From positions 1 through 59,917 of IMG/VR virus record IMGVR_UViG_3300000176_000011: 59,917 nt of DNA, one strand, 5' to 3'. A program made the translations under genes and the position numbers. The notes below the pieces were generated by a model. That model did not search any database. It saw only the letters and a list, made by a program, of their open reading frames with translations, and was not told the DNA's origin. Shown here one piece after another: positions 6,271 through 50,387 of the stretch (within the stretch, counting starts at the first letter, position 1; each line of letters opens with the position of its first letter). This DNA is from a virus. Taxonomy: Duplodnaviria > Caudoviricetes.

Positions 6271-6590
6271 TGACTAAAACGGGAAGAATTCTTCCCAAGG
6301 ATGTCATAGAGCATTGGCCAGAAGTATTCGGTGAAGTACATTTAAATGTGTTACCGCTTAGGTATCTCCATACCGTTTTGGTTAATTTTAAAGATGGCAA
6401 GGCTTGGGAAATACGCATCACTGCAAAAACTAAACGCAATGGCTGGCCAGCCTTTGAAAAGAACCTCAGCGAAATATTTAGAACCTATGAAGATCGAATA
6501 GATAACATAGATTTTAAATTAGACTCTGAACGTGTACGCAAGGATATAGAAGCAAGTACACAAAAATTTTTAAAGAAAAAGAAGTTATAA
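6270..6590 (+). CDS. hypothetical protein (106 aa)
   Basis: GTG start overlapping the previous stop. Confidence 0.7.
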   Translation: MTKTGRILPKDVIEHWPEVFGEVHLNVLPLRYLHTVLVNFKDGKAWEIRITAKTKRNGWPAFEKNLSEIFRTYEDRIDNIDFKLDSERVRKDIEASTQKFLKKKKL

Positions 6591-6593
6591 ATA

Positions 6594-7283
6594 ATGAATG
6601 TTAGATTACTTAGTTTCAGCCAACCAACTGAAGAATTTGCAAAATTGGGAATTGATGACGCCCAAGAGCTCATTGCCTATTGCGCCCGTGTGTCCAATCC
6701 TAGCAACCAACTTAACACCGAGACATCAGAAAAACTTATACGATACCTTATCAAACACAAGCACTGGAGTCCGCTCGAAATGGTCTCCGCTTGTATCGAA
6801 ATTACCACAACTAGAGACATTGCCAGACAAATCCTTAGACACAGAAGCTTCAGCTTCCAAGAGTTCAGTCAGCGATATGCTGACCCTACTCGAGACTTGT
6901 CGTTTGTATTGCGAGATGCTAGACGACAAGACACCAAAAATAGACAAAACAGTATAGAACTAGATGTCCATGGCAACGATGAAGATCGATTCCTAGCTTA
7001 CCAATGGGAACGTATGCAAGAACTAGTTATTAAACAATCAAGAGAAGCATACGATTGGGCGATTGAAAAAGGTATTGCTAAAGAACAAGCCCGTGCTGTA
7101 TTACCAGAGGGTTTGATCGAAAGCCGTTTGTACATGAATGGCACACTGCGTAGTTGGATACACTACTGTGAGTTAAGATCAAACAATGGAACACAAAAAG
7201 AGCATATGGAAATTGCGTTAGCCGTTGCTAAAGTAATATCCAAAGTATTTCCTATAATGGGTGACGTTTGTAGTGATTTGTAA
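6594..7283 (+). CDS. thyX: flavin-dependent thymidylate synthase
   Basis: HWSPLE and RHRSFSFQEFSQRY ThyX motif; EQARAVLP; ELRS. Confidence 0.95.
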   Translation: MNVRLLSFSQPTEEFAKLGIDDAQELIAYCARVSNPSNQLNTETSEKLIRYLIKHKHWSPLEMVSACIEITTTRDIARQILRHRSFSFQEFSQRYADPTRDLSFVLRDARRQDTKNRQNSIELDVHGNDEDRFLAYQWERMQELVIKQSREAYDWAIEKGIAKEQARAVLPEGLIESRLYMNGTLRSWIHYCELRSNNGTQKEHMEIALAVAKVISKVFPIMGDVCSDL

Positions 7284-7881
7284 GATTATTTATTGATACT
7301 TCTTCTTTACATATTGTGCAAGAACATCGAGATTGTATTCTTCCAATAGCCTGTTGTCGTATTTTTTCTTTAGTAGAATCTGTATGAATACGTCCAAGAT
7401 TATGCTTTTTCCTAACTTCGGATCTTTTCTTTTTTAATATTTTAGCTTCTTCAATACCATGAATTTGCTCATAAGTTTTGCCTCTTCTTACATCTGAAAG
7501 TTTTTTTGATCTTAATTGTTTAAGTTCTTGAGCTTTTTTAGTTCCATATCGTATCTCATATGTTTGCCCCTTTCCTCTGTTTAATTTAGAATAATCAATA
7601 TACTTAGATGTATCGCCACCATCCCCCGATTCTAATTTTAAGTTTGCCCATTTATCAGAATTTATAATATCTAATTTTTCAGATAATGGTATAGAAAAAT
7701 TCTTTAAATCTTCATTATTTGCAAATGTTCCTATTATTTCTGTAGTAACATTATTTCCATGTTTGTTAAGATGAGAAACCCAGCGTGTTCCAGAACCTTT
7801 ATATTTAAAGGGATCTTTTATTGTTTTTCCTAAATATTTTAAACCAGTGATTTTATGTGTTTTTATATATAAGTAAATCAT
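7252..7881 (-). mobile_element. free-standing GIY-YIG-family homing endonuclease with NUMOD3-like basic repeats
   Basis: N-terminal IYLY...KYLGKT...YKGSG; two RGKxYE..G...A..K repeats; HTDSTKEKI; lies between two copies of the thyX 3' end. Confidence 0.8.
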
Positions 7882-7886
7882 ACATT

Positions 7887-7894
7887 TATTTATA
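7887..7894 (-). promoter_or_regulatory. T4-type late promoter TATAAATA for the homing endonuclease
   Basis: Exact TATAAATA 5 nt upstream of the ATG at 7881. Confidence 0.7.
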
Positions 7895-7902
7895 TACTTT
7901 TA

Positions 7903-8022
7903 CATTTTATTGAATTGCGTAGTGCAAACGGTACTCAAAAAGAACATCAAGAAGTTGCTATTGCATGTGCTCAAGCGATAGCTGAGATTTTTCCATTAGC
8001 CACCGATCTTGTAGCCAATTAA
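7903..8022 (+). pseudogene. thyX: stranded second copy of the thyX 3' end (39 codons plus stop)
   Basis: Translates HFIELRSANGTQKEHQEVAIACAQAIAEIFPLATDLVAN*; 19/31 identical to HYCELRSNNGTQKEHMEIALAVAKVISKVFP encoded from 7161. Confidence 0.9.
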
Positions 8023-8650
8023 AATCATTTATTTTACTCAATGCCTCCTTATTGGAGGTATTTTTTTCCCCGTAATCTCGTCCGGCTAATGCTCCTAGAT
8101 AAGCATAAAATCCGTATTTGGCATCGACATTTAGAGTACACCACGCATCTAATCTACTTAAAGATTCCTCGTCGTTAGTTACTGCCAATTTACAAGATTC
8201 TCTAAAAGCACTGCGCCAGGTATTATAAGGATCTGTATTGAAGGCAGTAATATTACTAATAGTATCCATAGCTCTAAATTTACTACTGATATTAGTTGTC
8301 ATATCTATAGTATCAGTATTCATTTTTAAAGTAAGATTTTTTGGCAGTAATTTAACTCCACCGTACCCATATGATAAATTATTAATGGGATTTAAGCTAC
8401 GCCAGACGTGTACTATATCTAAATCCCATTCAGGAACTTTATAATCAAAATTGAAGTCATTTAATATAACTGCATCGGCATCTACTACCCACAACATTTT
8501 AGTAAATGCTTTACGAGCTGCCGCGATGTGAGCTTGATGTATACCTTCAACTCCATGTACACGTTTTGCTAATGGAAACTTTTCTTTTAAATTATTGAAA
8601 TTTTCGTCAGCATACTTTTCATTATAACTGATAAAGATTATATCATACAT
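7958..8650 (-). CDS. glycosyltransferase-like protein (GT-A, DxD)
   Basis: IIFISYNE...RVHGVEG..AH...WVVDADA; YGYGGVKL; paralog of the next gene. Confidence 0.7.
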   Translation of the reverse strand: MYDIIFISYNEKYADENFNNLKEKFPLAKRVHGVEGIHQAHIAAARKAFTKMLWVVDADAVILNDFNFDYKVPEWDLDIVHVWRSLNPINNLSYGYGGVKLLPKNLTLKMNTDTIDMTTNISSKFRAMDTISNITAFNTDPYNTWRSAFRESCKLAVTNDEESLSRLDAWCTLNVDAKYGFYAYLGALAGRDYGEKNTSNKEALSKINDFNWLQDRWLMEKSQLSLEHMQ

Positions 8651-9539
8651 GGCGTTTTCTTATTATACGAGGGCTGTTATTATATACTGTTTTGAAAAAT
8701 TTACTGCCATTTGGATCTACATCTGCTATTTCTAGTTTACATTTTGTTCTAAGTTCTTGTCCTAAGAAATTGTTATAAGACATACTTTCATCTGCACTGA
8801 CACCTTGATGTTTCTCTTTCCAGTAGTCAGTTAAGTAATCAAAATCTCGAACATTAGCATAATCCCAATCTGTACAATTGGTCAAATAAGCTCCTTCCCT
8901 AGCTCCAATAACACTCCATATACCATTATCTACATCTGTGCCAATAGTTGACCATATTAAAAGTCTATGATAATTTTGCCACCATATTGTAGATAAATCA
9001 GCAACCTTGGCTCCTTGGTCTAGCGACATTTTTACACCTTCTCGAAAACCTGCTCGCCACGCCTGGAATGGTGTTGCATTGGTAAAACTTTCTGAATAGT
9101 TTTCGTTGAATTGATAGTATTTGTCGTCAAAACAAAATTCAACTAGTCCTTTAGTATCAGTTGGATCTGAGTTTTCATGTGTGCGCATTTCATTTACAAA
9201 TTTACGTGTCCACAGTTTTAATCCGCCATTGCCATACATAAGTCCATTTACGTGTACACGCCCGCACCAACTAAATACGTGCTCAGGTGTAAGGCCTAAT
9301 TTATCAAGGTCAATTTCAACTTCTAAAAATTTAGAATCAATAATGTTGTCAGCGTCTACAGTAACAAAATATTCTGTTTCACTTAAGGCAGCGCAAGCCT
9401 TGTGTGCCGCATCGCTGCCTTTTACTCCGTGAACACGTTTAGCCCAAGGCACTTTAGTTACTAAATCTGCATAATTTTTTTCAGCGTTTGGTTCATCATA
9501 GCTAAGAAAAATAATATCTTGTTCTATAATTTTAATCAT
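8643..9539 (-). CDS. glycosyltransferase-like protein (GT-A, DxD)
   Basis: IIFLSYDE...RVHGVKG..AH...VTVDADN; YGNGGLKL; WRAGFRE. Confidence 0.7.
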   Translation of the reverse strand: MIKIIEQDIIFLSYDEPNAEKNYADLVTKVPWAKRVHGVKGSDAAHKACAALSETEYFVTVDADNIIDSKFLEVEIDLDKLGLTPEHVFSWCGRVHVNGLMYGNGGLKLWTRKFVNEMRTHENSDPTDTKGLVEFCFDDKYYQFNENYSESFTNATPFQAWRAGFREGVKMSLDQGAKVADLSTIWWQNYHRLLIWSTIGTDVDNGIWSVIGAREGAYLTNCTDWDYANVRDFDYLTDYWKEKHQGVSADESMSYNNFLGQELRTKCKLEIADVDPNGSKFFKTVYNNSPRIIRKRHV

Positions 9540-21785: not shown

Positions 21786-24700
21786 TTAACTCTTATAATC
21801 GCTATACCAGATACCCGGACTAGCTTTTAAGAACTGGGCAATCTTAGTATTGTCGTTTTGAATGTTCAAACTGCTATCCCAAGCAATGCCGTTACGTTTT
21901 ACTACAGTTATTTGAATTCCAGAATTAACTGTGTTAGTTAATCTTAACTGTTTAGAAATACCATCTACTGCAAATTCAGCATCAAACTGTACATCGCCAG
22001 ATGGGCTATATGGAGCTTGATTAACATTGAATAGCTTGTAAGGTTTTTTCTTTAATCTAATTCCACCAGCAAATACTTCTATGTCATTACTTTGTCCGTA
22101 GCCTGCAGGAATACCGCTGGTAAATCCACTAGGATAAGTCCAAAGATCTTTTGATTTAGTTGGAACAAATCCTAGATTTACAATGTGTGTTCCATTAGAA
22201 ATAATTTGTTCTGTTGTAGTGGTTTCAGTGTATGGAATAGTTTCTGTTGGTCCTATATCTTGTACAAACGAACCAGCTCGATGTAAATTATACACACCTG
22301 TACCTAATGTACCTCTACGTAGTTTACTTAAAGTGTTGCCTTGAATAGCAAAATATTCAATTCTTTCTCCGCGAATTTCTATTACACCCGGTAAATTTTT
22401 ACTCGGATTTGGCACATCAAAGTTTGAAGCATCAACTAGGACAATACTAGTATCATTCCAATGCAAATCTTGGGCTAGTGTAGTTTGTTTATTCAAACTT
22501 AATCGTTTAAAATGTACTCGATTTAGCATGTCTTTAAACTGTTGATATGCAATTCCCGTAGTTAATACATTACTGCCAAATGTAATTAATGTAATTTCAT
22601 CTTCAGGATTTGGAGGTACTAACAACTGAATCGATACTTTGTCATCGTTAACTCGGTAGTCAATACTTGGTGTCAATAATGTCGAATTTTTAACTACCCA
22701 AACATAATTGTCATCAATAACTGGTCTATCTAATTTAATCAAACCACTTAAAATTTGTTTGTAATAGTAAAATTCAAATGTATTTGGTGTTAGTACTGCA
22801 TTAGCTGTGACATTAACAGTTGTTCTTTCAATATCTAATACTGAATGATTATACGAACTAATCACTTCCACTGTATGAGTATTATCATAGGCCTGTGTGA
22901 ATGTAATTTGTTGTGTTGAAGGATTATAAAAATAACTCTCATTAGTTGTGATACTGACAAGCAAATTCTTTCCAGTATACTTTGTATAAATTACCTTGCT
23001 AATTTTTATACTAATACCGCCTATGTCTACAGTATAATCTGATCCAAGGGTTAGTTGAACACCGTCGACAAATACTAAAATTTGGTCAATAGCCGCAGTG
23101 TACGGACTTATTTTAGCAGGATCAATTGCATAATTCAGTTTGTTTTTTCCAATAACAAAGTAATTGTTATTCGGTCCTTGCAATATGCTTTGATCTACAC
23201 GAACAATCATATTTGATTCGTTAGGTAAACTTGTACCTATAGGATAATTTAAATTATAAGTTAAACTACCATCTGTTGGGACCAGTTCTGTTTTAGTTAT
23301 TGCAAATGTTTGTTGCTTACCGCCAACAATTATAAAATTAACCAAACTACCAGCATTTGGCGGTATTGGAAATCTAATACCAACAGCATTAGAAAACTCG
23401 TAAGTACTATCAGTTTTAAATAGCACTGGAGATGTTATTACACCATCAATATAAACTAACGATGTAAATGATGATAACCAAGGTGCTTTAGTTATAAATT
23501 CTGTTGTGACACCATCGCCTATAAAATAATCAAGGTCTAATATGTTAGATCCATTAAATCCAATATTAAAAATACTAATAACATCGCCCTTTGCTGGTAC
23601 AGAATTTAATCTAATAGTACGAGTTCTGTAATCAATTGAGTAATCGTCTGAGTAAGTTTTTACTAAGTTATTAACTTTAACTACAACCGCTCTTTGACTA
23701 TTAGGTTGCTGTGTCATAACATAAGATTGTGCTATACCATCAGCAATAAAATTATCTACTTTTATATTTGCAGATCCAGTAATTGGTCTATCATAAACTT
23801 TGATAGAAACTGAATCAACTACTTGCCCTGGAACAACTTCTTCAGGCGCAGGACTAGAAGTAGGTGTTACAAATCCGTCACCATCGACGATAATATCATC
23901 AGCTAACAATCCTGTTGCAGTAGTATATGCCCAATCACCACCAGTTAATGCAGTGTCATAATCTGTTTCTGCTGTCGGGATTGATCCATCGCTGGTTGTT
24001 TTTCTTAAGATAAACTCGTCGCCTTCATTAACTGTATATGTATTTGGTATAGTAAATGTTGCAGATTCACCGTCAGCAACAAATGTCGGTACAATAGCAT
24101 TTTTGTTTTTTTGGTCAGGAGTACCGTATGCAGGGTCATCTAAACGTATTGGATTTATTTTACCAGTTATATTCAATATACTACCTTGAGTAACAGGCGC
24201 AGTAAGTAATAGTGTTCCGTTAGCATTGATAGTTAAGTCATTTGGTTGCACTAAAGTTCTAGTGAACTTTATATCAGAACCATAAGGTATATCTGCATAA
24301 ACTATGGTACTAATCTTAATAGTTGTACTATTAACAATTTGAATAACTTGAGTATCGTATACAAAAGAATTAGAAGCTGTTGTTGAAACTAAGTCTCCAA
24401 CATGTATGTTTGCAGTACTAGTCAAGGTTAGTTGATTGCTACCTGCTTGATTAAATGTAAATGTCAATGTTCCGCTTGGAGTACTGTCAGATACTTTGTC
24501 AATAATAACCGTAGTAGAATCTGGAATTGAAACAACATGTCTTTCAGTAGCAAACCCTACTCCAAATATGCCCATACCAATTACAATACCAGCAGTATTT
24601 GTTACTTTTAATGTAGTATCAAAACTGCCACTAGAATTATAAGTTGTTTGTATACCTGATGATGAAACTGTTGTAATAGTTGTTGCTACAGGACTAATTG

Positions 24701-27700
24701 CTAACGGGTTATAATTATACTCGACCTGAGTGCCATTTGATACGTAAGAATCAGTATTATTTTTAATATGATAAATGTTAATTTCTGTACCAACATCTGG
24801 CGTATATGGCAGAGTAAAACTCCATGTGTTTGCATGTACTGTTACAAAATAATCGTCAAATGCAGTATTTGGGCTCCATTTATCTGAAAAATAAGGAGAA
24901 GATCCCCAACCTTTAGACACATCGAATCCAAGACCGTCGACTATAACTCCTCCATAGTCGATACCTGTCATTAACTGTGCTAGATCTTTACCAAGATCGC
25001 CTTCGCCTGGATTGTAAAAATAATTAATTCTATCAGCGGCATTCAAAATTGCATCGTTGATATAGTATGTAATAACTATTGTCGAACCAGTTGCAGGGGC
25101 ATTGCCTACAACAAAAGATAACAATCCAGAGTATTGTGTATAACCATTAGTTGTCGAAGTAATAGTTGTTAAATTATACAATTCTCTTAGTACTGGAATA
25201 CCGTTAACAACCACAGTTGAACGCCCTATAGTGATATCCGGACTCCATTTTAATTTAAATTGTAAGGCACTGCCTGTACCGCTAAATGTTTCTACTTGTT
25301 GTAACTGTGTGATATAATTTGTCTGTGTAATTCTATCAAATTTAATTCCAATTCTAGTAGAACGTATTACGCTATTTCCAATAATTGCAGATGCAGTCGC
25401 GGCTACACCTGTGCTAGAAATACCACCATCAATTACTACCTTAGGAGCAGACAAATATCCACTACCCGGAGTTAATAACACTATTCGATTAACTGTTCCA
25501 TTGGTAAAAAATGCTCTTGCAGTTGCACCGTTACCAGAATCGCTGATAAATCTTACAGTAGGTTCTGTCAAATATCCAGATCCTCCGCTAGTTAAAACTA
25601 ACTCGGTGACTTGGAATCCAACATTGTCAAGCCAGAATTTCCAAGGATAATTCTGAATATGATAGTCATCTGCTTGAATTTTTCCATCCTTAACTGTAGT
25701 ATTAACTAAGACAATTTTATTATTTTCATATATTGGCTGTAGGTCAAAGTCAGTAACCGGCATCTCAGCAGTATCCATACTTTCGTAATTACTAACGTAT
25801 TCTCTAATTTTAGTTCTATAAGGCTTAACTTCTGCTACATAGTCTTCAAAATTTGACAAATTGTCAACAGGATAATTTACAGGCTGACTTAACGCACCAA
25901 CATTATGTTGAGCTTTGACAAAACTAGTTTTGAAAATCCAGTCAACATAAACTTGTTCGCTAAACACATATCTTATACTATTAAAGAATAAATTTAAATA
26001 TTCTTGTTTAAGGTTACTAATAAAGATATTTGTCTTAATTGTTTTCAAAATAATTCTTAGTTCTGTAGAAGCTACTATGTCAAATACATCGCCATCAAAA
26101 ATACTTGAATCATATCCAACATTTGTTCCTACAAATTCATATAATGAACTGTCTAATTGAATTGTTCCGTTTTGTATGCCAATTACGCTATAAGAAAGTG
26201 TCCAATCAACACTAGTTGAATCGGCATATTTTTCTAATAATAACCAACCTCCAGCATTTGCTGTTCTAATTTTTACAGTATTACCGATAGATGGCTCGAT
26301 TGTGTTTAAATCTGCAAATGTATTAACAACATAGTCAGCTAATGTAAATTGATTGTAACCTGTTGCATACCAATCTACATAAGTCCAATATTTTCTAACA
26401 TCATAACTTTGTGTTAGTGTTCTTGACCACAATTTATAAACTGTATCATATGTATAGATACTCCAGTTACCTTCTGCTTGACCATCACTATGTACTAGTA
26501 CACTATAACTTCTAACTTGACAAATTGTTTCTCCGGCAATATATCCTTCACCAGCCGACACAACAGTTGCTCCGATGATTTGTCCTTGAGAATTTATTAT
26601 GGATTTTACTACGGCTCCTTGACCAGGTCCTACTATTGTTATATAAGGTGCAACTACGTAACCTTTTCCTGAAGATACAATCTTTATTCCTGTAACTTTT
26701 CCGTTAGCATCAACTTCAGGTGTAATCTCAGGCATCACAAACGAAGTTGTGTTGGTATATTTTAATTCTGCATCAGTATCTAACACAGTATCATACAATC
26801 CTTGTATAATATTTGGTTCGGCATCGTACTGATTTAACTTACTTAGGTCGCTATTTTCAACAATTCTATTTTTTAATAAAATTTGATTCGTATATTCTAT
26901 AAATTCTTTTAGTGCTTCAAATCTGTTTACAAACATGCCTTGGCGCGGTCTATTTTCAACACCATATCGAATTTTAACTGGTAACAAAGGATCTGGAACC
27001 AAACGACCTGATTCATCTGCACCGCATAAACTATCAATCCATTTTTGTTCAATTACACTCGGAAGTGTAATTGTAGGATCGTTGCTGATAATTTTCCACT
27101 GACTATGTACATTTTGGTCTGTTTTATCAATAGTCCAATATTCAACAGACAGTACTACGTTACTGCCATTTAAAAATGGTTTTATATTTGCCAAACTAAA
27201 TGTGTTTAATCCAGTTAGTGCTAGGTACGCATAGTCTTGGCCACGTGGATTTGCAATTAAATTAGACACATCTTGGGCAGACATGTTTCTTCCGGGTACT
27301 TGTGGTACAATCTTTTTATTCTTAACCCAGAAATAGTAAGTATTTTTAAATGCTTTACTTATTTTGTCATAATTTTGTCTAGTAGAATAAACACTATCAC
27401 CATATAGACTTGTTCCGCTGATGCCCACTGCTATCCCTGCCACAGTATCTGCTTGTGCATCCCATTGACTAGGTTTAAGATTTGAACTTACCCATTCGTA
27501 GATATCTACACTAGCTCCGACGGCTAGTGTATTCCAATTGCTATTTCTATAAATGATATCTTGGTCATAAGCGTTGACAAACTTTATAGTAGTAAGATTC
27601 CACCACAATGTACCAACTTGTTGTTTTGACCAAGCATTTGAACTATCAACAACTACCGCAGACGTGCCTGTAGAATAAACTGCTGGATCATAGAAAGTTT

Positions 27701-30700
27701 TATACTTAATTTCTTCTTCTGCTGGTCCAGGAATTTTTCCTTGTAAAGGATCAATCACATCAAGATATTTGATAAGATTTCCTGTAGCTCTATTGTATAA
27801 AAATGCCTTTTTAACTTTACTAATATCAGGTATATCAATTCTTTTATTGGTCACAGTCCAAGAATAAGTACCAGGCATTTTAGAATAATTGTAAATTTTT
27901 CCTGATTTTAAATTTCTATCTTGAGCGTAAGGTGCACCAACAAATATTTGATTTGCACCTACGGCAAATCCAACACCGTAACCGTCGCTAACTGTGTTTG
28001 AAGTTGGCAAAGTTTCACTGAACACCCACTTGGTTGCATACATATCATAAACGTCTACACGACCTGTATTAACTTGTGTTGTTAAGAATTGTGTTGAATC
28101 TTTATCAAATGTTGTAATACCGTTTGTATTAAATGTTGTTGTGGTAGTTGTATCGCCTGCCTGGCTATAAACAACCAATGTTTCATAGTCGTTCATAAAG
28201 GCAATTTTATTACCAAAACGTCCTTGTACTTCAGGATAGTGGTCAACCAATTCTTGATAAAAACTATAACTGTTGGAAGTATACTTGTAAACTCCTACTA
28301 CGCCTTGTTGATTAACTTTAGTAGTAGATTTAATATCATCAGAAACAGCAATATAAGTTCCACTGTCAGAAATAGCAATACTCTTACCAAAATTATTATC
28401 AATTCCAACTAATGTTTGGGAAGGAGTTGTGGAAAATGCTGTTCCAGTTTTCTTATAAACAAAAATCTTACCTACAGTAACTCCGCCAGCATTAGAAATT
28501 AATAATGTATTTCCGTCGCCGCTTAATGAAACTGCACTTCCAAAATTTTCTCCGTTTACTGATCCTGTGAATATTTCACTTGAATCATAAACAAACCGTG
28601 TTGTTACAAAACTTAAAACGCCCAAAGGTGTTGAATTAGGACTTCCGGATAAAGCAAGAGTAGTTTCATCTATAATTGACGTTACATATTGATTAGATGT
28701 AAACCCAGTTCCGACAACATACATACCTGGCCTAATGCCCAATGTAGAAGTTACAGAAATAACAGCATTGTGACTTCCTACAGGATTATAAGATGTTGAC
28801 ACATTAGTTATTGTAGTGTATTTAAATTTATAAACTATACCTTTATTATTGTTGTAGCCAATTGCACCAACATACAAGACATTATTTCCAAAGGTTAATG
28901 TTGAACCAAACTGTTCATTTGCTGTTGGAGTTGGACTCAGTATTGTATCGACTAAAATGTATTCATTATTTGCATCTTTTTTGTATAAACTAATAACACC
29001 GTGTTTAGATAAATTATTATTTGTTCCAGTTATATCTACTGGAACATATGGCAACGCTGTCCAAGAAGTTATACCTGTAACAATTGATGCAACTGTAATG
29101 GTACCAGTATTAATATTATTAACACTATCAATTTTAATTAATAGATCATTTAATACATTGTCGCCACCCAAGGCTGCTCCAGAAATTCTAATATTATCTC
29201 CGACAACATAACCTGAACCACCGTTGTTAACAGAAATAATATAGCCTGATAAGATTGGAGTTACATTGAATGTAGCACCTGACCCAAGTATTATGTTACC
29301 AGGTAAACTAGTATAAGTTCTGTCTGGGGTAATTCCTGACCATGAAATAGTTTGAATACTATCTTGTTGTGGAGGAGTTCCCGTTACTGTAATAGTAATA
29401 TCATTAACTGTGTCAAGTCCACCAACTTGTGATCCTAATATTTTAATTTTATTTCCAACTTTGTATCCTGCTCCACCTGACACAACATTTATTGTATAGG
29501 AAGCTCCAATAACAACAATAGTAAAACGAGCCCCTTGTCCTTGAGTTGATGTAATACCACTAACAGTATATGTGCTCTGTATATTAGAAATTTTTGTAGT
29601 AACATTAGCAATGGTACCAATTGTAGGTTTTGACCCTCCAGTTACTAAACAAGTTATTGAAGTATTGCTGTCAATGGATTGAATTGTTACGTTAGTTGGA
29701 TAATTGCCAAACAAACTGCCAGTTCCATCATTAGCAACAAATGTTCCGTTGACTGCTAATCCAGCAGTATTATCTAGCTGATTAATAGTAACTACCCAAG
29801 GTCCGGTGGCATCCAACAAAACATTTACTGGAGTCACTAGACTTATTGTTCCAAAATTACTGATTTTAGAAACAGTTGGTGCTTGATAGTATATGCCACT
29901 GCTGGATACAATCGCACCGCCTGGATAAGAAGTACCAGCTATGAACGCTGAACCATGCACTACATCTTGTACTAATCGAGTAGCCGCATATCCTGCTAAT
30001 GGGCTTCCAGTAGCTAACCATGTATTGTCATTAGAAATTGCAATTACATTAGCAGATACATTGGGAGAATTTAAATTAACTCCTGGAAAAGTATTTGCAG
30101 ATATAGCTGGGTTGGAAATTGCTTGATGCTTAATCCAAGGTACAAGTATTCCAGATTTTGCATACACTAATGTTTTACCATCAGAGGTACTTATTGCTGA
30201 AATAGTACCAGTATTTGAAACAGCTATAGTTCGGCCATAGGTTAAACCAGCAGATGGAGTGGTGTTTAAAATATTGGCTTGACTATAAGCAGACTCGTAT
30301 GTCCATGTAGCCCAAATTCCGTCATCTGTTTGAATGTTGTCGGTCCAAATTAATTCTTTATTTTTTAATCTACTTGGAGAAATATTGTCTAATAAATCAA
30401 TAGTTGTAGTTCGTTGTGAAATTAAAGTATATACTGTAATACTACTTAAATTAGGAAATGGCTGCACCCACTTAGGCACAGTCGCAGACACTACAAATGA
30501 ATTTAGCGATACTGAAATAATTTTGTAAAAACCATTTATATTTGTAGTTTGTGTTATACCAATATAAGAATTAACAGCAAATGTAACTAATTTTTCTGTA
30601 GTAAACGTCAATGTCTTGGCTGTTGCATCGTAGGCAACACCGACTACAGTAATTCCAATATCTGTAAATCTATACACATTCCAATAAAATGGAGGGGTGT

Positions 30701-33700
30701 CAAATGTACACCAAATGTAACTACCGTTTATAAGTTTACTTGGATCTTGACTGGTAATATCGCTAATATTACCTATAATAATATCGACATCACCTGAATT
30801 AACATGACCTGCATTACGCAACAAAGGTTGATAAGTTGTTGCTATTGGCCAAGGATACGAGTTATAGCCAGTTGGTTTTAGATAAACATCGGTGGGTGTT
30901 TGTTGTATAATAAAAGAATTTATACTAAGATCTTTCTGTTGAACAAGATCATAGCCCTGAGGATTATTTTTTATATCCCCATCATTTAAAATAAATTCAA
31001 TTTGCTGGAACGCTGTACTTGCACCATACTGTCCTACACGCAACGCCCATTCTTCATAAAAAGATAAACTTTCTAGATTATCAGAACTTAGTACATCAAA
31101 CAATTTGTTAAGAACATTTTGTGTTCCTTTTTCACGAATCATTCCTTGATAAAATTTAAATTCGCTAACATCGTCTTGAATAATATTATCTAAATACTGA
31201 CGTTTTTGATAGCCAATTAAATGTTGACCCATAGTTTGTTGCTGTAGGTCAAAACTATCTGTGTCTAAACTGTAAAAATCTTGGAACTGTGTGGCTAAAT
31301 TTGTCCAGTTAGGCAAAATTTGTGGTGTTGGTTTATTAGCCAACTGTGTCCAATCGCTTGCTACAAATGTAGTAGTTCCTGGCAAAAATTTATTTGCACT
31401 ATAGTAATATCCTTGATATACAATAATATCTCCCATATTGTAATCAGTCCATTGTTGCCAAGATTTAACTACAGCTTGGTCAAACACAAAGCCAGGAATA
31501 TCTAAACCGCCATACCAGTCTGGAGTTACATAGGCCGAAACTTTGATTCTTTCTTGTCTATATCCGCTTTCAAGATTATAAATTACGTCATTAAAAATTG
31601 TTGTATTATTAATAATTACAACATGTTCATGCTGAATTAAGTAAAAACTTGCACCATAAATACCGTCAGCTGTTCGGGGACTATAGCTTACTGTATTTTC
31701 ATTTCTATAAGAATCTAAATCAGCTGGTTGAATTGCTGTGCCATCAACTTTAAAAATTTCATATGTGTTAAACAAGTTATTGATATCATCAACCACTGAC
31801 AACGGAGCATTGAAATTAATTTTTCCGGCAGAAGGACTAAGACTGATAACACTACTGCCTACGTTACTTAAACCATCTAATTTAGTATAGTCGTCATAAT
31901 TAAAAACACTGCTGGCAGGTAAATTTCTATTTGCACTATAATAATATCCGTTATATCTTACAATACTTCCATAGCTCACAGGCTGGCTTGGCAACCAATC
32001 GCTCCATTTGTCCTGACCTGTACTCCAATTTTGTGTAGTCCAGAATAAAAATTCTTTGGCACTAGTTTCCCAATTTGACACTTGACCGAGATTAGTATTG
32101 AATTCATTAAATTCAAATCCTTGATCCTTTAACCATTCTCCGTAGCCCTGTAAGAAATCAACTACTGCTTGTATTGTAGTAAATTCAGTTCCGTAAGGAA
32201 CTACTAGTTCAGATGTTCTATCCCATACTTTTCTTAAAACGGCATTAACACCGCCATTAACTGGCAACGTTGGTAATACAGCAAAATAAGAATTGTCAAA
32301 TGTAGCACTAGTATTTGTTGCAGTTGTTCTAAAATAAGAACCATTATATTTTACAATTGAGCCAATAGTATATTGTTGGCCTGCTGTCCAGGTAGTAAAA
32401 CTTTCTGATATTCCACCTACGTTAATGCTAGTACCAGATTGAATATATGGGTAATATTTAAAATATGGCTGTGTTTGACTATAACCTGATATTTGATATC
32501 CACCAGTTTGCTTTGTAATAATTACACCGCTATAGGTTAATTTGTTTACAGGATTTGAACTATTTAAAATAACTGAATAATCTTCTGCTGGTATGAATAC
32601 ACTACCTGTGCTACTTGGTGTCTTTGAATCTAATAATAGATTAAATTGATTTTTATTAGTAAATGCACCTAGTCTATAACTTAATTGAAAATTTATGGTT
32701 GCTAGATCGGTGGCATAGGTATTATAAGATTTTATATTATTACTAAAAATATAGTTTAAAATAAGATCTACAACGTAATTAATAATACCCGCAGTTTGTA
32801 CACGAGTATTACTAGAATAGATGCTAGGTAATACTATATCTGTAGGACGAATTCTTAAACCAGTATCTTTATAAATCAATTGTCCTGCGAGATTTCGTTG
32901 AATACGACTTCTGTCCAATAACAACCCTAGTGTTTTAGAAGGTGTTAATAATAGTGAAGTTATCAATACACTAAATGAATAATGACTGCTACGTCTCCAT
33001 GCGGCTTCAACTGGTGCAACATCTCCAAATACAAAATCAAGATTACTACTTGGTGTTATAGTTCCTCTAGATAGGCCAGATTGTACAGGGCTTAATAAAT
33101 TACCTTGTTCATCCACTGGAAGATTAGATATTAAAAATGGTTTAGCAAATTTTGATAGTTTAACCGGAGGAGTATTGGGATTTCTAACAATACCATCAGT
33201 AATATCTTGCCACATTACAAGATTATCACTAGTATATGGAGCTGGACCATACACGCTAGTCCACCATGTAGGTTCTATATTAAACCCTAACATCTCCCAA
33301 GGACAAATATGTGGTCTATCAGTGTCTAATAACCAACGATATACTCCTCTCCAATAGCCTGGTAAACTAGTATTGTCAGGTGCTGAATTGTAACTATAGT
33401 TGTAGGTAAAAGAATTATTAATATCGTAATTAATTGATTTAGTAAAATCTATTCCAACAAGTTTTGCCCATTTATAAAAACTTGGAGCAAGAACTGTATT
33501 AAATTCTTCTAGACTATAAACATTAGTTCTATTATAACTTGGTATGATATTAGTAATATCGAAAATTGTTGGATCATATTCTACTTTAATATTATTAAAA
33601 ATTCGTTTTTCTAATTCTAAAATCAGTTGATCTCTGTAATCACCATAGGCTAATATTTGACTACCATCATGACCTTGGATCATTAATTGACCTTCAGGAA

Positions 33701-47595: not shown

Positions 47596-48609
47596 ATGGA
47601 AAATTTATTTAAGAAAGCGGCTGTATTTACAGATCTCCATCTTGGACTGAAAAGTAATTCGTCAATTCATAATCAAGACTGCGAAGATTTTGTTGACTGG
47701 TTCATATCTAAAGCAAAATCCGAAGGATGTGACACAGGATTATTTCTTGGAGATTTTCATCATAATCGAAATACATTAAATGTAGTTACAATGGATTACT
47801 CGTTGAGAGTTCTGGAAAAGCTCGGTCAGGCGTTTGATAACTTCTATTTCTTTCCTGGTAATCATGATTTGTATTACAAAGACAAACGGGACATACACAG
47901 TGTGGAGTTTGGAAAGTATATACCTGGTATCACTGTGGTACATGAGCCTACTACTATTGGAGATGTCACGCTGTGTCCCTGGCTGGTTGGTGAAGAATGG
48001 AAATCAATAAGCAAAAAAGGTGGCAAGTATTGTTTTGGACATTTTGAATTACCTAAATTCTTTATGAATGCCATGGTACAAATGCCTGATCACGGCGAAC
48101 TTCAAGTAGATGCGTTCAAGGGGTTTGAACTAGGATTCAGTGGGCACTTTCATAAACGCCAACAAAATGAAAATATGATTTATATTGGCAACGCATTTCC
48201 GCACAATTATTCAGATGCTTGGGATGATGAGCGTGGTATGATGGTGTTAGAGTGGGGAGGCACTCCCACGTATTTTACTTGGCCTGGACAACCTACATTT
48301 CGTACAGTTAAATTAAGCCAGCTAATCGATGAAGCTGATAAAATTATTAAACCTAAACAACATCTTCGTGTGACTTTAGACATTGATATTAGTTTTGAAG
48401 AAGCTAGTTTTATTAAAGAAAAATTTATTGGTGATTATGACATTCGTGAACTAACACTAATTGCAGAAAAGAAAGAAGCTGAAATTAATACTAGTATTGA
48501 TATCCAGGCTTTTGAAAGCGTAGATCAAATTGTAAGCAATCAGATTATTAGTATTGACAGCGAAACATATAACAAAAACACCTTGTTGGAAATTTATAAT
48601 AGCTTATGA
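47596..48609 (+). CDS. gp47: Mre11/SbcD-like recombination nuclease
   Basis: DLHLG, GDFHH, GNHD, GHFE, SGHFH metallophosphoesterase motifs. Confidence 0.92.
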   Translation: MENLFKKAAVFTDLHLGLKSNSSIHNQDCEDFVDWFISKAKSEGCDTGLFLGDFHHNRNTLNVVTMDYSLRVLEKLGQAFDNFYFFPGNHDLYYKDKRDIHSVEFGKYIPGITVVHEPTTIGDVTLCPWLVGEEWKSISKKGGKYCFGHFELPKFFMNAMVQMPDHGELQVDAFKGFELGFSGHFHKRQQNENMIYIGNAFPHNYSDAWDDERGMMVLEWGGTPTYFTWPGQPTFRTVKLSQLIDEADKIIKPKQHLRVTLDIDISFEEASFIKEKFIGDYDIRELTLIAEKKEAEINTSIDIQAFESVDQIVSNQIISIDSETYNKNTLLEIYNSL

Positions 48610-50387
48610 GTATAAAACTTAAAGAATTAACAGTTAAAAATTTTATGAGTGTGGGCAACCAGACCCAGGCAGTAAACTTTGCCCAAGAAAATCTAACCCT
48701 TGTACTGGGTGAAAATTTAGATCAAGGCGGCGATGATAGTGGTTCACGTAACGGTACAGGTAAGACAACTATTGTAAATGCCTTGAGTTTTGCCCTGTTT
48801 GGCAATGCATTAACTAATATTAAAAAAGATAACTTGATTAATAAAACCAACAATAAAAATATGTTGGTAACACTGGCTTTTGAAAAAGATGGCACAGACT
48901 ATCGAATTGAACGTGGCCGCAAACCTAATGTACTACAGTTTTTTGTTAACGACCAAGCTCAAGAAACTGAAGAAACAGATGATGCACAAGGCGACATGCG
49001 TGAAACACAAAAGGATTTAGATGACCTGTTAGGCATGAGCCATGACATGTTCAAACATATTGTTGCTCTTAACACATACACTGAGCCGTTTTTAAGTATG
49101 CGGGCCAATGACCAGCGTGTGATCATTGAGCAATTACTAGGTATTACGCTTCTTAGTGAAAAAGCAGATGCACTCAAGGAATTGGTCAAACTGACCAAAG
49201 ATGCTATTACACAAGAAACAGCTAACATTGAAGCTACCAAACGCAGTAACGAAGGCATACAAAAAAGTATTGATAGTCTACTGACTAAACAAAATGCCTG
49301 GAATACACAACATGCACAAGATTTAGAAAAGATTGGTCGTGCTATTGTAGAACTTGAAAGTGTGGATATTGAAACTGAACTTGCGAAGCACAGCGAGCTG
49401 AAAGATTTTTCTGAAAAATCAGCGAAGCTGAAAAGCCTAGAAAAGGAGCAAGCTACTTTGAATAGCGCGATAGCGCAAGCAGAGCGAAGCGTTACGAAGT
49501 ATAACGGCGAGCTTGCCAAGTTGGCTAACAAGACCTGTCACGCATGTGAACAAGAACTACATGATCACAAACATGAAGAAATGACCACTGTTGCACAGGG
49601 TCACCTCAATGAAGCAAAAAAATACTATGACAAAGTTTCAAAAGACTTAGAAAAAATTCAAGCCGAGATTCAAGCAGTGGGCGAAATACCCCGCAAGCCT
49701 GTTACTTACTATGATACAATTGAGCAAGCTCTTAAGCATCAAAACAACTTAAAGACCTTGGAAAATCAACTGGTACAAAAAAGCCACGATGCTGATCCTT
49801 ATCAAGAGCAAATTGACGAACTAACCGACACAGCTCTCCAGGAAATTTCATGGGACCGTGTTAATGAACTTAGCAGTCTCAAGGATCATCAAGAGTTCTT
49901 GCTTAAACTGTTGACATCAAAAGATTCGTTTATTCGTAAAAAGATCATAGATCAAAATCTAGCCTACTTGAACAATCGTCTAACCTATTACTTGGACAAG
50001 ATGGGTTTGCCACACAGCGTACTATTTCAAAATGATCTTACAGTTATGATTACTCAACTGGGGCAGGACTTGGATTTTGACAACCTATCACGGGGTGAGC
50101 GCAATCGTCTTATCTTGGGTCTGAGTTGGGCGTTCCGCGATGTATGGGAAAGCCTATATCAAAACATCAATTTACTGTTTGTAGATGAACTAATTGACAA
50201 TGGCTTGGATGCTTCGGGTGTAGAAGGCGCACTGGCTGTATTGAAAAAAATGGCTCGTGAACGCAAAAAGAACATATTCTTGATATCACACAAGGACGAA
50301 CTAATTGGTCGTGTGAACAATGTGCTAAAAGTCGTTAAGGAAAATGGCTATACTAGCTATGCCAACGACTTAGAGATCAATGAGTAA
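48606..50387 (+). CDS. gp46: Rad50/SbcC-like recombination ATPase
   Basis: NGTGKTT Walker A, CHAC zinc hook, LSRGE signature, VDELID Walker B, ISH. Confidence 0.92.
   Translation: MSIKLKELTVKNFMSVGNQTQAVNFAQENLTLVLGENLDQGGDDSGSRNGTGKTTIVNALSFALFGNALTNIKKDNLINKTNNKNMLVTLAFEKDGTDYRIERGRKPNVLQFFVNDQAQETEETDDAQGDMRETQKDLDDLLGMSHDMFKHIVALNTYTEPFLSMRANDQRVIIEQLLGITLLSEKADALKELVKLTKDAITQETANIEATKRSNEGIQKSIDSLLTKQNAWNTQHAQDLEKIGRAIVELESVDIETELAKHSELKDFSEKSAKLKSLEKEQATLNSAIAQAERSVTKYNGELAKLANKTCHACEQELHDHKHEEMTTVAQGHLNEAKKYYDKVSKDLEKIQAEIQAVGEIPRKPVTYYDTIEQALKHQNNLKTLENQLVQKSHDADPYQEQIDELTDTALQEISWDRVNELSSLKDHQEFLLKLLTSKDSFIRKKIIDQNLAYLNNRLTYYLDKMGLPHSVLFQNDLTVMITQLGQDLDFDNLSRGERNRLILGLSWAFRDVWESLYQNINLLFVDELIDNGLDASGVEGALAVLKKMARERKKNIFLISHKDELIGRVNNVLKVVKENGYTSYANDLEINE
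49382..49512 (+). repeat. cluster of GNA/GA-loop mini-hairpins embedded in gp46
   Basis: TGC-GAA-GCA, CAGC-GA-GCTG, GATTTTT-CTG-AAAAATC, CAGC-GAA-GCTG, GCGC-GATA-GCGC, GC-GAA-GC, TAC-GAA-GTA within about 130 bp. Confidence 0.6.

Follow-up and report, generated by a model that had tools for sequence, protein, structure and literature searches.

The thyX locus

The window (the whole 59,917-nt stretch of DNA analysed here, i.e., positions 1–59,917 of the Caudoviricetes virus record IMGVR_UViG_3300000176_000011) carries a full-length thyX gene that is followed by an endonuclease-like gene on the opposite strand, a second thyX 3′ end and a convergent gene (Table 1). The thyX product is covered almost entirely by the Pfam Thy1 profile (PF02511; E 8.4e-45, profile positions 7–190 of 191) and matches the PHROG_85 thymidylate synthase family (3.7e-74).

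Table 1. Positions and strands of the features at the thyX locus of the window
Feature	Position	Strand	Description
Chimeric thyX	6594–7283	+	229 aa, full length, in frame; from the ORF listing
Resident thyX 5′ part	6594–7160	+	Codons 1–189
Inserted cassette	7161–7902	.	742 nt, inside thyX at the codon 189/190 boundary
Imported thyX 3′ end	7161–7283	+	Codons 190–229 and stop; His-Tyr-Cys-Glu-Leu-Arg type
Predicted homing endonuclease gene	7252–7881	-	209 aa; N-terminal GIY-YIG fold, helical repeats, Cys/His C-terminal end
Box TATAAATA	7887–7894	-	5 nt upstream of the endonuclease ATG; T4-late-promoter-like by sequence
Orphaned resident thyX 3′ end	7903–8022	+	Codons 190–228 and stop, by translation
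First 18 nt of the orphan (His-Phe-Ile-Glu-Leu-Arg)	7903–7920	+	Portion retained beside the endonuclease gene in related cassettes
Convergent gene	7958–8650	-	230 aa, from the ORF listing; last 65 nt overlap the orphan
Terminator-like hairpin	8040–8062	+	Directly past the orphan stop; from a consensus scan

The initial annotation had noticed that the thyX C-terminus occurs twice, and indeed the downstream copy translates as a second C-terminus with a terminal stop, although no start codon opens an ORF of at least 40 aa in it. The likeness of the two copies was borne out but not the original count of 19 in 31 residues, since a recount gave 20 of 39 residues and 62 of 117 nt. Their synonymous divergence is real as well, with different codons at 13 of the 20 identical residues (e.g., GAG TTA AGA TCA against GAA TTG CGT AGT). 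Among the 119,596 39-residue windows read in six frames over the whole stretch, none besides the copy itself and the orphan has at least 15 identities, so that the likeness of the two ends is not due to chance. The hairpin past the orphan stop is probably the former thyX terminator; the same consensus scan found no terminator-like site after the new thyX stop at 7283.

The cassette comprises the foreign thyX 3′ end, the antisense endonuclease gene, whose last 32 nt (7252–7283) overlap the thyX end, and the TATAAATA box. It lies between Trp-Ile and His-Phe-Ile-Glu-Leu-Arg of the resident protein, and its ends are ambiguous by 2–4 nt because CA/TACA is present at both junctions. The argument that the orphan shares its CGT, GGT and ACT codons with the rest of the arm is unpersuasive, as the resident thyX 5′ part itself has several AGA arginine codons; base composition is a clearer signal of foreignness than codon usage, with a GC content of 0.24–0.31 in the cassette versus 0.38–0.445 in the flanks. 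The box is called T4-late-promoter-like for its likeness to the T4 late promoter consensus, and TATAAATA or CATAAATA is kept at the same place in 8 aligned loci. A simple sigma-70 scan of 6400–8800 gave fewer promoter-like sites than shuffled sequence (6 versus 10.9), and no promoter is claimed from it. Note that one 223-nt contig (7270–7492) of the metatranscriptome run X19 matches the window exactly, but is not counted as transcription, since such libraries may contain DNA and their contigs have no strand. The rest of the stretch was not covered in X19, to which no meaning is attached.

The overlap of the convergent gene with the orphan had been proposed as the reason why the old end persists. 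This overlap is real, and the thyX end overlaps the orthologous gene likewise in the endonuclease-free relatives, but it spans only 65 of the 120 nt; recency fits the intact orphan better, because the other 55 nt are also intact and older cassettes elsewhere keep only the first 18 nt. The label 'glycosyltransferase' given to this gene was not sustained, as its product has no Pfam or PHROG match, and the Atlas yielded no more than weak leads, with Glycos_transf_2 assigned to 13% of the proteins in a cluster that scored 0.87.

The endonuclease gene and its fold

The 209-aa protein matches PHROG_314 'homing endonuclease' (1.6e-10), and its AF2 model has a mean pLDDT of 88.3. The catalytic domain of I-TevI occupies Foldseek ranks 1–3 (probability 0.98, TM 0.62 on the target, 95 columns, E 0.077), and 1ln0_A comes first in the wide VIA-align search (rmsd 2.6, 81 of 92 residues) with a Z of 7.7, which lies in the range that the tool calls common. 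T4 EndoII (Z 4.0), the UvrC GIY-YIG domain (Z 3.5) and the At-HIGLE catalytic domain (Z 3.4) also stand among the top 11; EndoII and HIGLE are members of the GIY-YIG class. Sequence identity to I-TevI in the structural alignments is 16–21%. The GIY-YIG assignment of the initial annotation is thus upheld by fold, with the I-TevI catalytic domain as the top match, and not by sequence profile, since Pfam searches with E cut-offs of 0.01 and of 10 returned no GIY-YIG match. Searches of the PDB with phmmer and with an alignment profile returned no match either, and the absent GIY-YIG profile match is a detection limit rather than a defining trait.

Twenty-two close orthologues all share residues Y5, Y16, G18, R33, H37, N80 and E84, and R33, the presumed catalytic arginine, varies in the wider family (a set of 31). 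On the model, the protein is a GIY-YIG-fold endonuclease with predicted activity, which could nevertheless be inactive. In addition, a GGAG is found upstream of the gene in several orthologues but not in the window, which makes the expression of the window's gene uncertain.

The empty site and a second phage with the same cassette

The claim that the cassette had inserted inside thyX and that a diverged C-terminus had restored the gene agrees with the empty site found in all six endonuclease-free relatives compared, which align to 7162 and resume at 7901/7903 with all of their own bases kept. The eight closest endonuclease-free loci (L001–L008) are collinear with the window when 7163–7900 is skipped, and their thyX 5′ parts share 85–93% amino acid identity with the resident part. 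The insertion is not one between genes, as in the free-standing type, since the empty site lies within thyX at codon 189/190. Relatives without the endonuclease had been expected to carry the orphan version of the end, and L001–L008 indeed match the orphan at 79–92% (92% identity for L004, L006 and L007) and the in-frame copy at 58–67.5%. The opposite outcome, endonuclease-free relatives carrying the 7161–7283 version, was not observed: all endonuclease-bearing loci read have His-Tyr-Cys at the junction, and none of the 76 loci read that lack the endonuclease does.

A second phage in IMG/VR (L082) has the same structure in a different background. Its cassette differs from that of the window by one mismatch (7299) in 742 nt, and the imported thyX 3′ end is 100% identical. 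In the thyX 5′ part, 53 of 567 nt differ between the two phages, four of them in the last 167 nt; in the orphan, 15 of 103 nt differ (12 at third codon positions; 33 of 34 residues agree), and its first 29 nt are identical. From these comparisons, the cassette appears to have moved recently.

Empty and filled alleles of thyX coexist in the same lake metagenomes, since contigs joining 7159 to 7903 were found alongside the filled allele in the DNA runs X3 (two contigs) and X4 (one contig). The GenBank phage collection contained no close relative of the region, its 18 records all being thyX-only matches at 67–83%.

Discordant histories of the two parts of thyX

Trees of 85 thyX alleles, 11 of them endonuclease-bearing, gave different histories for the two parts of the gene. 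In the 5′-part tree, the window's thyX is placed with L001–L008 and the endonuclease-bearing alleles are scattered (10 changes needed); holding these 11 alleles together was rejected (delta lnL 323, AU p 2.5e-68). In the 3′-end tree, built on only 39 columns with a quick search, the same 11 alleles form one group (SH-aLRT 97, 1 change), and the orphans fall among the endonuclease-free alleles. When the junction residues were left out, 3 changes were needed versus a shuffled mean of 10.5, and none of 500 shuffles was as low. The histories of the 5′ part and the 3′ end are therefore discordant. Phage genomes are mosaic, and part of this discordance could come from ordinary recombination. Note that the window and L082 are sister alleles in the 5′-part tree (support 82), as would be the case if a single ancestral insertion had been followed by homogenisation of the cassette, which may have happened for these two.

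Distribution of the cassette and alternative explanations

Full-length orthologues of the endonuclease (at least 67% identity) lie antisense at the thyX end in 9 of 9 IMG/VR loci, and the gene has the same position in 17 of 18 metagenome loci. In L171, also an endonuclease-bearing allele, the thyX end is partly resident-like. A second, related cassette type (L184–L186) brings a His-Tyr-Ile end, and the orphan it leaves behind is of the His-Tyr-Cys kind. The loci that have no full orphan could be read as plain donors with the gene after thyX, and this reading was overturned by the 18-nt remnants described below.

The most serious alternative, which we nonetheless regard as improbable, is that of a free-standing, T4 Seg-type gene whose usual place is after thyX, with the orphan left by a one-off untidy repair and the carried end being a co-conversion tract. 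According to the review text available (PMC2988022), flanks are normally co-converted with such genes; the full orphan is absent at most orthologous loci, and the resident end is gone in L034 when compared with its endonuclease-free relative L072. However, loci without a full orphan still keep 18 nt of the displaced end, at a distance of 21–34 nt from the start codon of the endonuclease gene in 10 of 10 IMG/VR loci and detected by pattern in 12 of 18 metagenome loci, and remnants at the same spot place the insertion point of those loci inside thyX and not after it. Moreover, the endonuclease and thyX ORFs physically overlap, full orphans recur in at least four backgrounds (the window, L082, L179–L181 and L184), and the entire 3′ end, beyond the site alone, co-segregates with the endonuclease.

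Two homologous thyX ends in tandem could also result from a local duplication of the thyX end, followed by divergence and by insertion of the endonuclease between the copies. We hold this to be very improbable, since the in-frame end groups with endonuclease-bearing alleles of other thyX lineages while the orphan groups with the relatives of its own lineage, the empty site of the relatives has a single thyX end, and the cassette of L082 is near-identical despite differing flanks.

A self-splicing intron, or another removal at the RNA level, with an antisense endonuclease gene and with 7903–8022 as the true last exon, would account for an insertion that is precise and within a conserved motif, like intron sites, and for the joined 7159–7903 form in sequence data. 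This joined form comes from DNA runs and belongs to relatives, and related loci have only the in-frame end and 18 nt. An Rfam cmscan of 6400–8800 at E up to 1 found no intron RNA family (only a chance-level malK-II at 22.9 bits versus a gathering threshold of 52.9), in agreement with the intron-free insertion first proposed, and there is no room for a ribozyme core because 123 of the 742 nt encode the in-frame end and 630 the endonuclease. This makes an intron extremely improbable. Finally, although many related thyX alleles co-occur in the samples, an assembly chimera of two of them is next to impossible, since independently assembled contigs of other samples show the structure (a 1266-nt contig of run X2 crosses both junctions, 7062–8327, without a difference to the window, and X3 covers 7183–7965 likewise without difference), and L082 has the same structure.

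Proposed mechanism and significance

We consider it highly probable that the thyX locus represents homing by gene-end replacement, in which a mobile element occupies a phage gene of the essential type as neither an intron nor an intein. Its mobile unit would consist of the foreign thyX 3′ end, the antisense gene of the GIY-YIG-fold endonuclease and the promoter region of the latter. During co-infection, the endonuclease would cut an element-free thyX at or near the conserved His-Phe-Ile-Glu-Leu-Arg motif, and the phage recombination machinery (SbcCD/gp46-47-like genes are present at 47596–50384 of the window) would repair the break from the element-bearing genome, using the thyX 5′ part as the left homology arm and the displaced thyX end, or its remnant, as the right one. 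The recipient would obtain a chimeric but complete thyX with a recoded junction (His-Tyr-Cys, arginine as AGA and serine as TCN), and its target site would also be split by 742 nt; with both changes, the endonuclease should be unable to cut the new allele. The recipient would keep its original 3′ end downstream as an orphan, which would later decay except for its first 18 nt. The anatomy of the locus, the empty site, the chimeric thyX, the recent spread and the presence of both alleles together are observed; we infer cleavage, the cut position, the immunity of the cassette-bearing thyX and the roles of the remnant.

A broader reading, in which gene-end replacement is a general third homing route beside introns and inteins and the thyX family displays its full life cycle, with remnant roles and an arms race, is tentative and in our view rather doubtful. 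In that reading, the 18-nt remnant, which lies by TATAAATA in nearly all cassettes, would be a putative binding half-site of the endonuclease, and it would be retained as a putative autorepression operator, by analogy with I-TevI, and as right homology arm. The remnant may also have been co-opted as the spacer of a candidate TTGACA-N16-18-TATAAT promoter of the downstream gene, and the L184–L186 cassettes would mean an arms race in which each new endonuclease ousts the resistant end brought by the one before.

The locus offers a possible explanation for the chimeric histories of a common phage nucleotide-metabolism gene, and a signature for annotation, namely diverged copies of a gene end on either side of a nuclease gene. 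The natural series of an empty site, a fresh insertion with a full orphan, an old insertion with an 18-nt remnant and a degenerate endonuclease is useful for studying the origin, spread and decay of homing elements, and the recoded junction points to candidate recognition bases of a new GIY-YIG specificity.

Comparison with known systems

I-TevI, the endonuclease of the T4 td intron, comes closest in structure to the N-terminal domain, but is intron-encoded. According to the review text available (PMC2988022), it binds an operator that resembles its homing site and overlaps its own late promoter, and the candidate half target site beside TATAAATA resembles this arrangement by analogy. The Seg and Mob genes of T4 ('intronless homing'), as treated in the same text, share with the thyX cassette the phage setting, a GIY-YIG nuclease (here by fold), a presumed double-strand-break repair with co-conversion of flanks, and promoters of neighbouring genes embedded at the insertion, which are putative here. 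However, Seg and Mob genes are intergenic or interrupt a gene, which then yields two polypeptides (mobE in Aeh1 nrdA, mobA in the T4 topoisomerase gene), whereas the thyX cassette lies within the reading frame and its carried end keeps the gene whole; the string 'duplicat' does not occur in the available text of that review (PMC2988022).

The mORFs of fungal mitochondria (Allomyces macrogynus atp6; Glomus atp6, atp9, cox2 and nad3), in the available portion of Beaudet et al. 2013 (PMC3630166), show the same order of a foreign C-terminus, an endonuclease ORF and a native C-terminus duplicated downstream, and likewise the native copy matches close relatives while the inserted copy is diverged. 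The mORF in atp9 uses a GIY-YIG enzyme, as here by fold. In contrast to the separate antisense gene of the phage, mORFs belong to organelle genomes and are often fused in phase on the same strand.

The WHO elements of Torulaspora and Lachancea yeasts, as presented in the accessible parts of Coughlan et al. 2020 (PMC7282813; also preprint 10.64898/2026.08.13.744650), likewise place an endonuclease gene beside a host gene. The 3′ end carried by WHO elements is resistant, and that of the thyX cassette is presumed to be so. In both systems the old 3′ end is displaced downstream as a fragment and possible homology arm, the 5′ and 3′ trees of the host gene are discordant and no splicing is required; serial displacement is hinted at here by L184. 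The WHO nuclease is an intein-derived LAGLIDADG-zinc-finger protein acting at a nuclear aldolase gene in meiosis, whereas that of the cassette has a GIY-YIG fold and resides at thyX of a lytic-type phage; its gene is antisense and overlaps the host gene, unlike WHO, and its cleavage is predicted, while that of WHO has been shown. A literature search, with supplements and subscription journals outside its scope, found no report of a phage in which a homing endonuclease replaces the end of a gene. Gene-end replacement is thus known from yeast and fungal mitochondria, and what appears new here is the phage setting and the GIY-YIG-fold nuclease. If true, this means that invading a conserved gene and mending it with a recoded end brought along by the element, as WHO elements and mORFs do, is not peculiar to fungi and appears to be at work in abundant freshwater phages with a different class of nuclease.

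The resident and imported ends of thyX

In the window, the last codons of thyX occur twice, as the in-frame 3′ end of the gene and as a stranded copy (the orphan) beyond an antisense homing endonuclease gene, and the coordinates and codon examples given for this duplication in the initial annotation proved correct upon translation and comparison of the copies. The two ends agree at 20 of 39 residues and 62 of 117 nt; for 13 of the 20 matching residues, the codons differ. Among the 119,594 other window positions (all six frames), the orphan is the only one with at least 15 of 39 identities to the in-frame end. The cassette is AT-rich (GC 0.24–0.31 vs 0.38–0.445 in the surroundings).

Features of the window discussed in the text
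Feature	Position	Strand	Description
thyX	6594–7283	+	229 aa; Pfam Thy1 8.4e-45, profile covered essentially in full
Cassette	7161–7902		742 nt
Imported thyX 3′ end (in-frame copy)	7161–7283	+	
Endonuclease ORF	7252–7881	antisense	209 aa; final 32 nt shared with the thyX end
Orphan thyX C-terminus	7903–8022	+	translation ends in its own stop
230-aa gene	7958–8650	−	
Adjacent paralogue of the 230-aa gene	8643–9539	−	about 30% identity
Terminator-like hairpin	8040–8062	+	directly 3′ of the orphan stop; lies in coding sequence of the convergent 230-aa gene
Single ORF	21786–36671	−	4961 aa; adjoins a baseplate-wedge-like 1162-aa gene

A ThyX protein search of IMG/VR gave 80 loci, the closest of which have thyX converging directly on an orthologue of the 230-aa gene, with 3′ ends overlapping as those of the orphan and the 230-aa gene do in the window. 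BLAST of the window against six endonuclease-free loci (L001, L002, L003, L004, L006 and L008) returned two collinear blocks, the left one reaching at least 7162 (in four loci it continues across the conserved in-frame end to 7237–7256) and the right one beginning at 7901 or 7903. Since these blocks abut in the relatives, or overlap by 2–4 nt (CA/TACA), the cassette was inserted cleanly between codons 189 and 190, and all of the resident sequence was kept. Endonuclease-free relatives had been expected to match the orphan, and they do: in the eight closest (5′ part 85–93% identical), the C-terminus is 79–92% identical to the orphan vs 58–67.5% to the in-frame copy. By a hand count from the table of matches, the orphan is the closer match for 65 of the 80 loci, the 15 exceptions being more distant alleles and L034, an endonuclease carrier.

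Both allele types were also found in DNA sequencing runs, none of them from the possible source sample. Contigs from X2 (7062–8327) and X3 (7183–7965) show no difference from the window, and one from X4 (7079–8004) is as the window but with the base of L082, another locus bearing the cassette, at 7299. Empty-site contigs in which 7159 is joined to 7903 with one base between (two in X3, one in X4) come from relatives at least 85% alike, and more diverged ones occur in X2 and X4. Because the same runs carry filled and empty sites, element-bearing and element-free alleles co-occur where co-infection could unite them; these data are contigs, from which allele frequencies cannot be read.

The new thyX stop (7283) has no terminator-like hairpin, and therefore transcripts of thyX may run on across the endonuclease gene in antisense. 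A 223-nt contig from the lake metatranscriptome X19 matches 7270–7492 exactly, its strand and RNA or DNA origin being ambiguous.

A family of thyX cassettes

A profile search with the endonuclease identified 80 IMG/VR loci. Full-length orthologues (67–100% identity) lie antisense at the thyX end in 9/9 loci and overlap or abut thyX in eight of them, the two genes being 646 nt apart in L090, with two small ORFs between. The remaining 71 loci mostly have the N-terminal domain in common (34–61% identity), and thyX is absent within 2.5 kb at each of them. A metagenome scan added 18 loci at ≥50% endonuclease identity, with thyX adjacent in 17 and none in the 926 nt available for L172. The junction reads His-Tyr-Cys-(Glu/Asp)-Leu-Arg (TAY TGY ... 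AGA) in every endonuclease-bearing allele of this first cassette type (10 distinct records plus 5 more), while its Cys is found in 0/76 endonuclease-free loci; there, the junction is His-(Phe/Tyr)-(Ile/Met), and most Arg codons are CGN.

Some loci depart from this arrangement. Cassettes of the L090/L169/L170 type carry two extra small ORFs in thyX sense (66 and 103 aa; L090:3121–3629) that separate the new thyX stop from the endonuclease gene; the remnant of the resident end is followed by a 602-aa gene that is ribonucleotide-reductase-like by eye. At L083:2314–3705, a 39%-identical endonuclease relative with an internal stop codon lies just 3′ of another thyX, co-oriented. L182 and L183 have endonuclease matches in two frames with the first 10 codons missing, next to a thyX with an imported-type end; such apparently degenerate genes are candidates for a stage in the decay of the element.

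We split 85 thyX alleles (11 endonuclease-bearing, 74 endonuclease-free) at codon 190, leaving out same-contig duplicates, L059, L068, L069, L083, L167 and two alleles of a second cassette type. On the 5′-part tree, the endonuclease state takes 10 changes, with strong support for placing L034 with L062/L072 (100), L171 with L050/L056 (98) and L090 with L071/L073 (99), and the best tree uniting the 11 is 323 log-likelihood units worse (AU p 2.5e-68). A quick search on 39 columns, with SH-aLRT as the only support measure, gave a 3′-end tree in which one branch (SH-aLRT 97) sets the 11 ends apart; the three orphans lie among the endonuclease-free alleles, that of the window nearest L004/L006/L007 (92%). 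When the putative target (residues 1–7 of the end) is left out, the 11 ends remain clustered (3 changes vs a shuffled mean of 10.5; 0/500 shuffles as low as 3). Because the trees of this chimeric gene disagree in this way, the replacement end and the endonuclease gene are transferred together through many thyX backgrounds.

Recent spread between two phages

L082 comes from another phage, whose 208-aa protein upstream is 85% and 230-aa protein downstream only 51% identical to the window counterpart; the same cassette lies at the same position there. In an ungapped comparison with the window, the thyX 5′ part differs at 53/567 nt (4 of them in the last 167 nt), the cassette at 1/742 nt (position 7299) and the orphan at 15/103 nt, 12 of these at third codon positions. 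The orphans are identical over their first 29 nt, and outside the overlap with the other gene 5/5 differences are at third positions. Since the differences are mostly at such positions and 33/34 residues are kept, the orphans diverged in separate genomes while still coding; the intervening cassette is virtually identical in both. This pattern has the features expected of the footprint of a recent homing event with short co-conversion tracts. A single ancestral insertion, with the cassette later homogenised by gene conversion, keeps some probability, as the two alleles are sisters in the 5′-part tree (support 82). The allele of the 230-aa gene directly after the L082 orphan, being only 51% identical, points to a recombination boundary at the element.

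Remnants of displaced ends

Further full-length orphans were found in L179–L181 (His-Tyr-Ile-Glu-Leu-Arg-Ser...) and L184. Loci without a full orphan have an 18-nt piece in thyX sense, His-Phe-(Ile/Asn)-Glu-(Leu/Met)-Arg, located 21–34 nt from the endonuclease ATG and directly past a TATAAATA/CATAAATA box. This remnant was found in 10/10 IMG/VR loci and, by pattern, in 12/18 metagenome loci; it was not found in L185, L173 has no upstream sequence, the endonuclease is 5′-truncated in L182 and L183, and L184 and L186 show His-Tyr-Cys-type pieces by eye. The same remnant recurs across loci, and therefore all elements lie inside thyX at one point.

Compared with endonuclease-free L072, L034 has lost ~105 nt, the remainder of the resident end, in a deletion that stops at the −10 box of the next gene (L034:3340–3400 vs L072:4540–4710). 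A TTGACA spans the right edge of the L034 cassette, 18 nt upstream of this box, and in remnant-only loci the edge TTGACA, the remnant as spacer and the −10 of the next gene form a near-consensus promoter; L072 has instead a TTGCAA-N17-TATACT promoter within the thyX end. The need to keep this spacing may account for the constant remnant length of 18 nt.

In alignment A3 of the endonuclease upstream regions, the window, L082 and L167 lack a 13-nt stretch containing GGAG (Shine-Dalgarno-like) that lies, in the other orthologues, between the TATAAATA box and the ATG of the endonuclease gene. As the ATG also lies 5 nt past the box in the window (7882–7902), endonuclease translation may be weak or leaderless there.

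The second cassette type (L184:296–1704 and L186) has an endonuclease 50–60% identical to that of the window and a His-Tyr-Ile-Gln-Ile-Arg thyX end, and leaves a His-Tyr-Cys orphan (L184) or remnant (L186). Apparently, what it displaced was an end such as the first type brings, which hints at a succession of elements or an arms race.

The enzyme and its phage

None of the curated sequence profiles recognises the 209-aa protein as GIY-YIG (Pfam, PDB sequence and profile searches). It matches PHROG_314 ‘homing endonuclease’ (1.6e-10), and its L034 orthologue has a NUMOD3 motif (3.1e-4). A large protein database holds 728 homologues, with an informative name on none of the 120 listed. The AF2 model is confident (pLDDT 88.3), and two independent structure searches with it ranked the catalytic domain of I-TevI first: Foldseek with prob 0.98 and E 0.077, and VIA-align with Z 7.7 and an rmsd of 2.6 over 81 residues. 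Lower in the top 11 VIA-align rows are T4 EndoII, the UvrC GIY-YIG domain and At-HIGLE, EndoII and At-HIGLE being likewise of the GIY-YIG class. Across 22 close orthologues, Tyr5, Tyr16, Arg33, His37 and Glu84 do not vary. Judged from the model, the endonuclease has a predicted GIY-YIG fold, and its core residues are conserved.

The window comprises 59.9 kb of a large virus record (completeness 16%, CheckV estimate) and is found in lake and freshwater metagenome runs. The phage is a large T4-like myovirus, since baseplate wedge and hub, portal and SbcD/SbcC-like (gp47/gp46-type) nuclease genes are present. Pfam and PHROG gave no family for the 230-aa protein or its paralogue, and the label ‘glycosyltransferase’ proposed for the former is backed by weak leads only.

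Mechanism and known systems

Our results support the initial annotation, in which a homing endonuclease replaced the 3′ end of thyX and left the old end stranded, on the evidence of the empty site, the trees and the orphan match, and show, beyond this one locus, a family that invaded many thyX lineages. The predicted enzyme would cut alleles with an empty site, at the Trp-Ile-His-Phe-Ile-Glu-Leu-Arg motif or close to it, and repair would copy the cassette, the arms being provided by the thyX 5′ part and the displaced end. Resistance of the new allele would come from the recoded His-Tyr-Cys/AGA/TCN junction together with the 742-nt split of the half-sites. More speculatively, the 18-nt remnant beside the TATAAATA box recalls the I-TevI operator, a homing-site look-alike overlapping the late promoter of that gene (PMC2988022).

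The closest rival, an ordinary free-standing endonuclease gene beside an accidental orphan, leaves unexplained why the intragenic site and the remnant are the same at every locus and why the thyX end co-segregates with the endonuclease. Splicing, with the orphan as second exon, is unlikely: ribozyme models gave no match, the cassette leaves no space for a ribozyme, thyX already has a complete in-frame end, and a second exon is missing from related loci. Local duplication of the thyX end is contradicted by the trees and the empty site, and an assembly chimera by the independent contigs that reproduce the structure.

In the open full-text literature (main texts), we found no phage example of gene-end replacement by a homing endonuclease; a T4 review describes intron-borne, intergenic and gene-splitting endonuclease genes and nowhere in its text mentions duplication of a gene end (PMC2988022). 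The logic of the thyX cassette matches that of the yeast WHO elements, in which the FBA1 3′ end is replaced, fragments are left and 5′ and 3′ trees are discordant (PMC7282813), and that of the mORFs in fungal mitochondria (Allomyces atp6 and the Glomus hybrids), among them a case with a GIY-YIG enzyme (PMC3630166). Thus, this kind of homing element is already known, and what is new here is the phage setting and the antisense enzyme with its predicted GIY-YIG fold.
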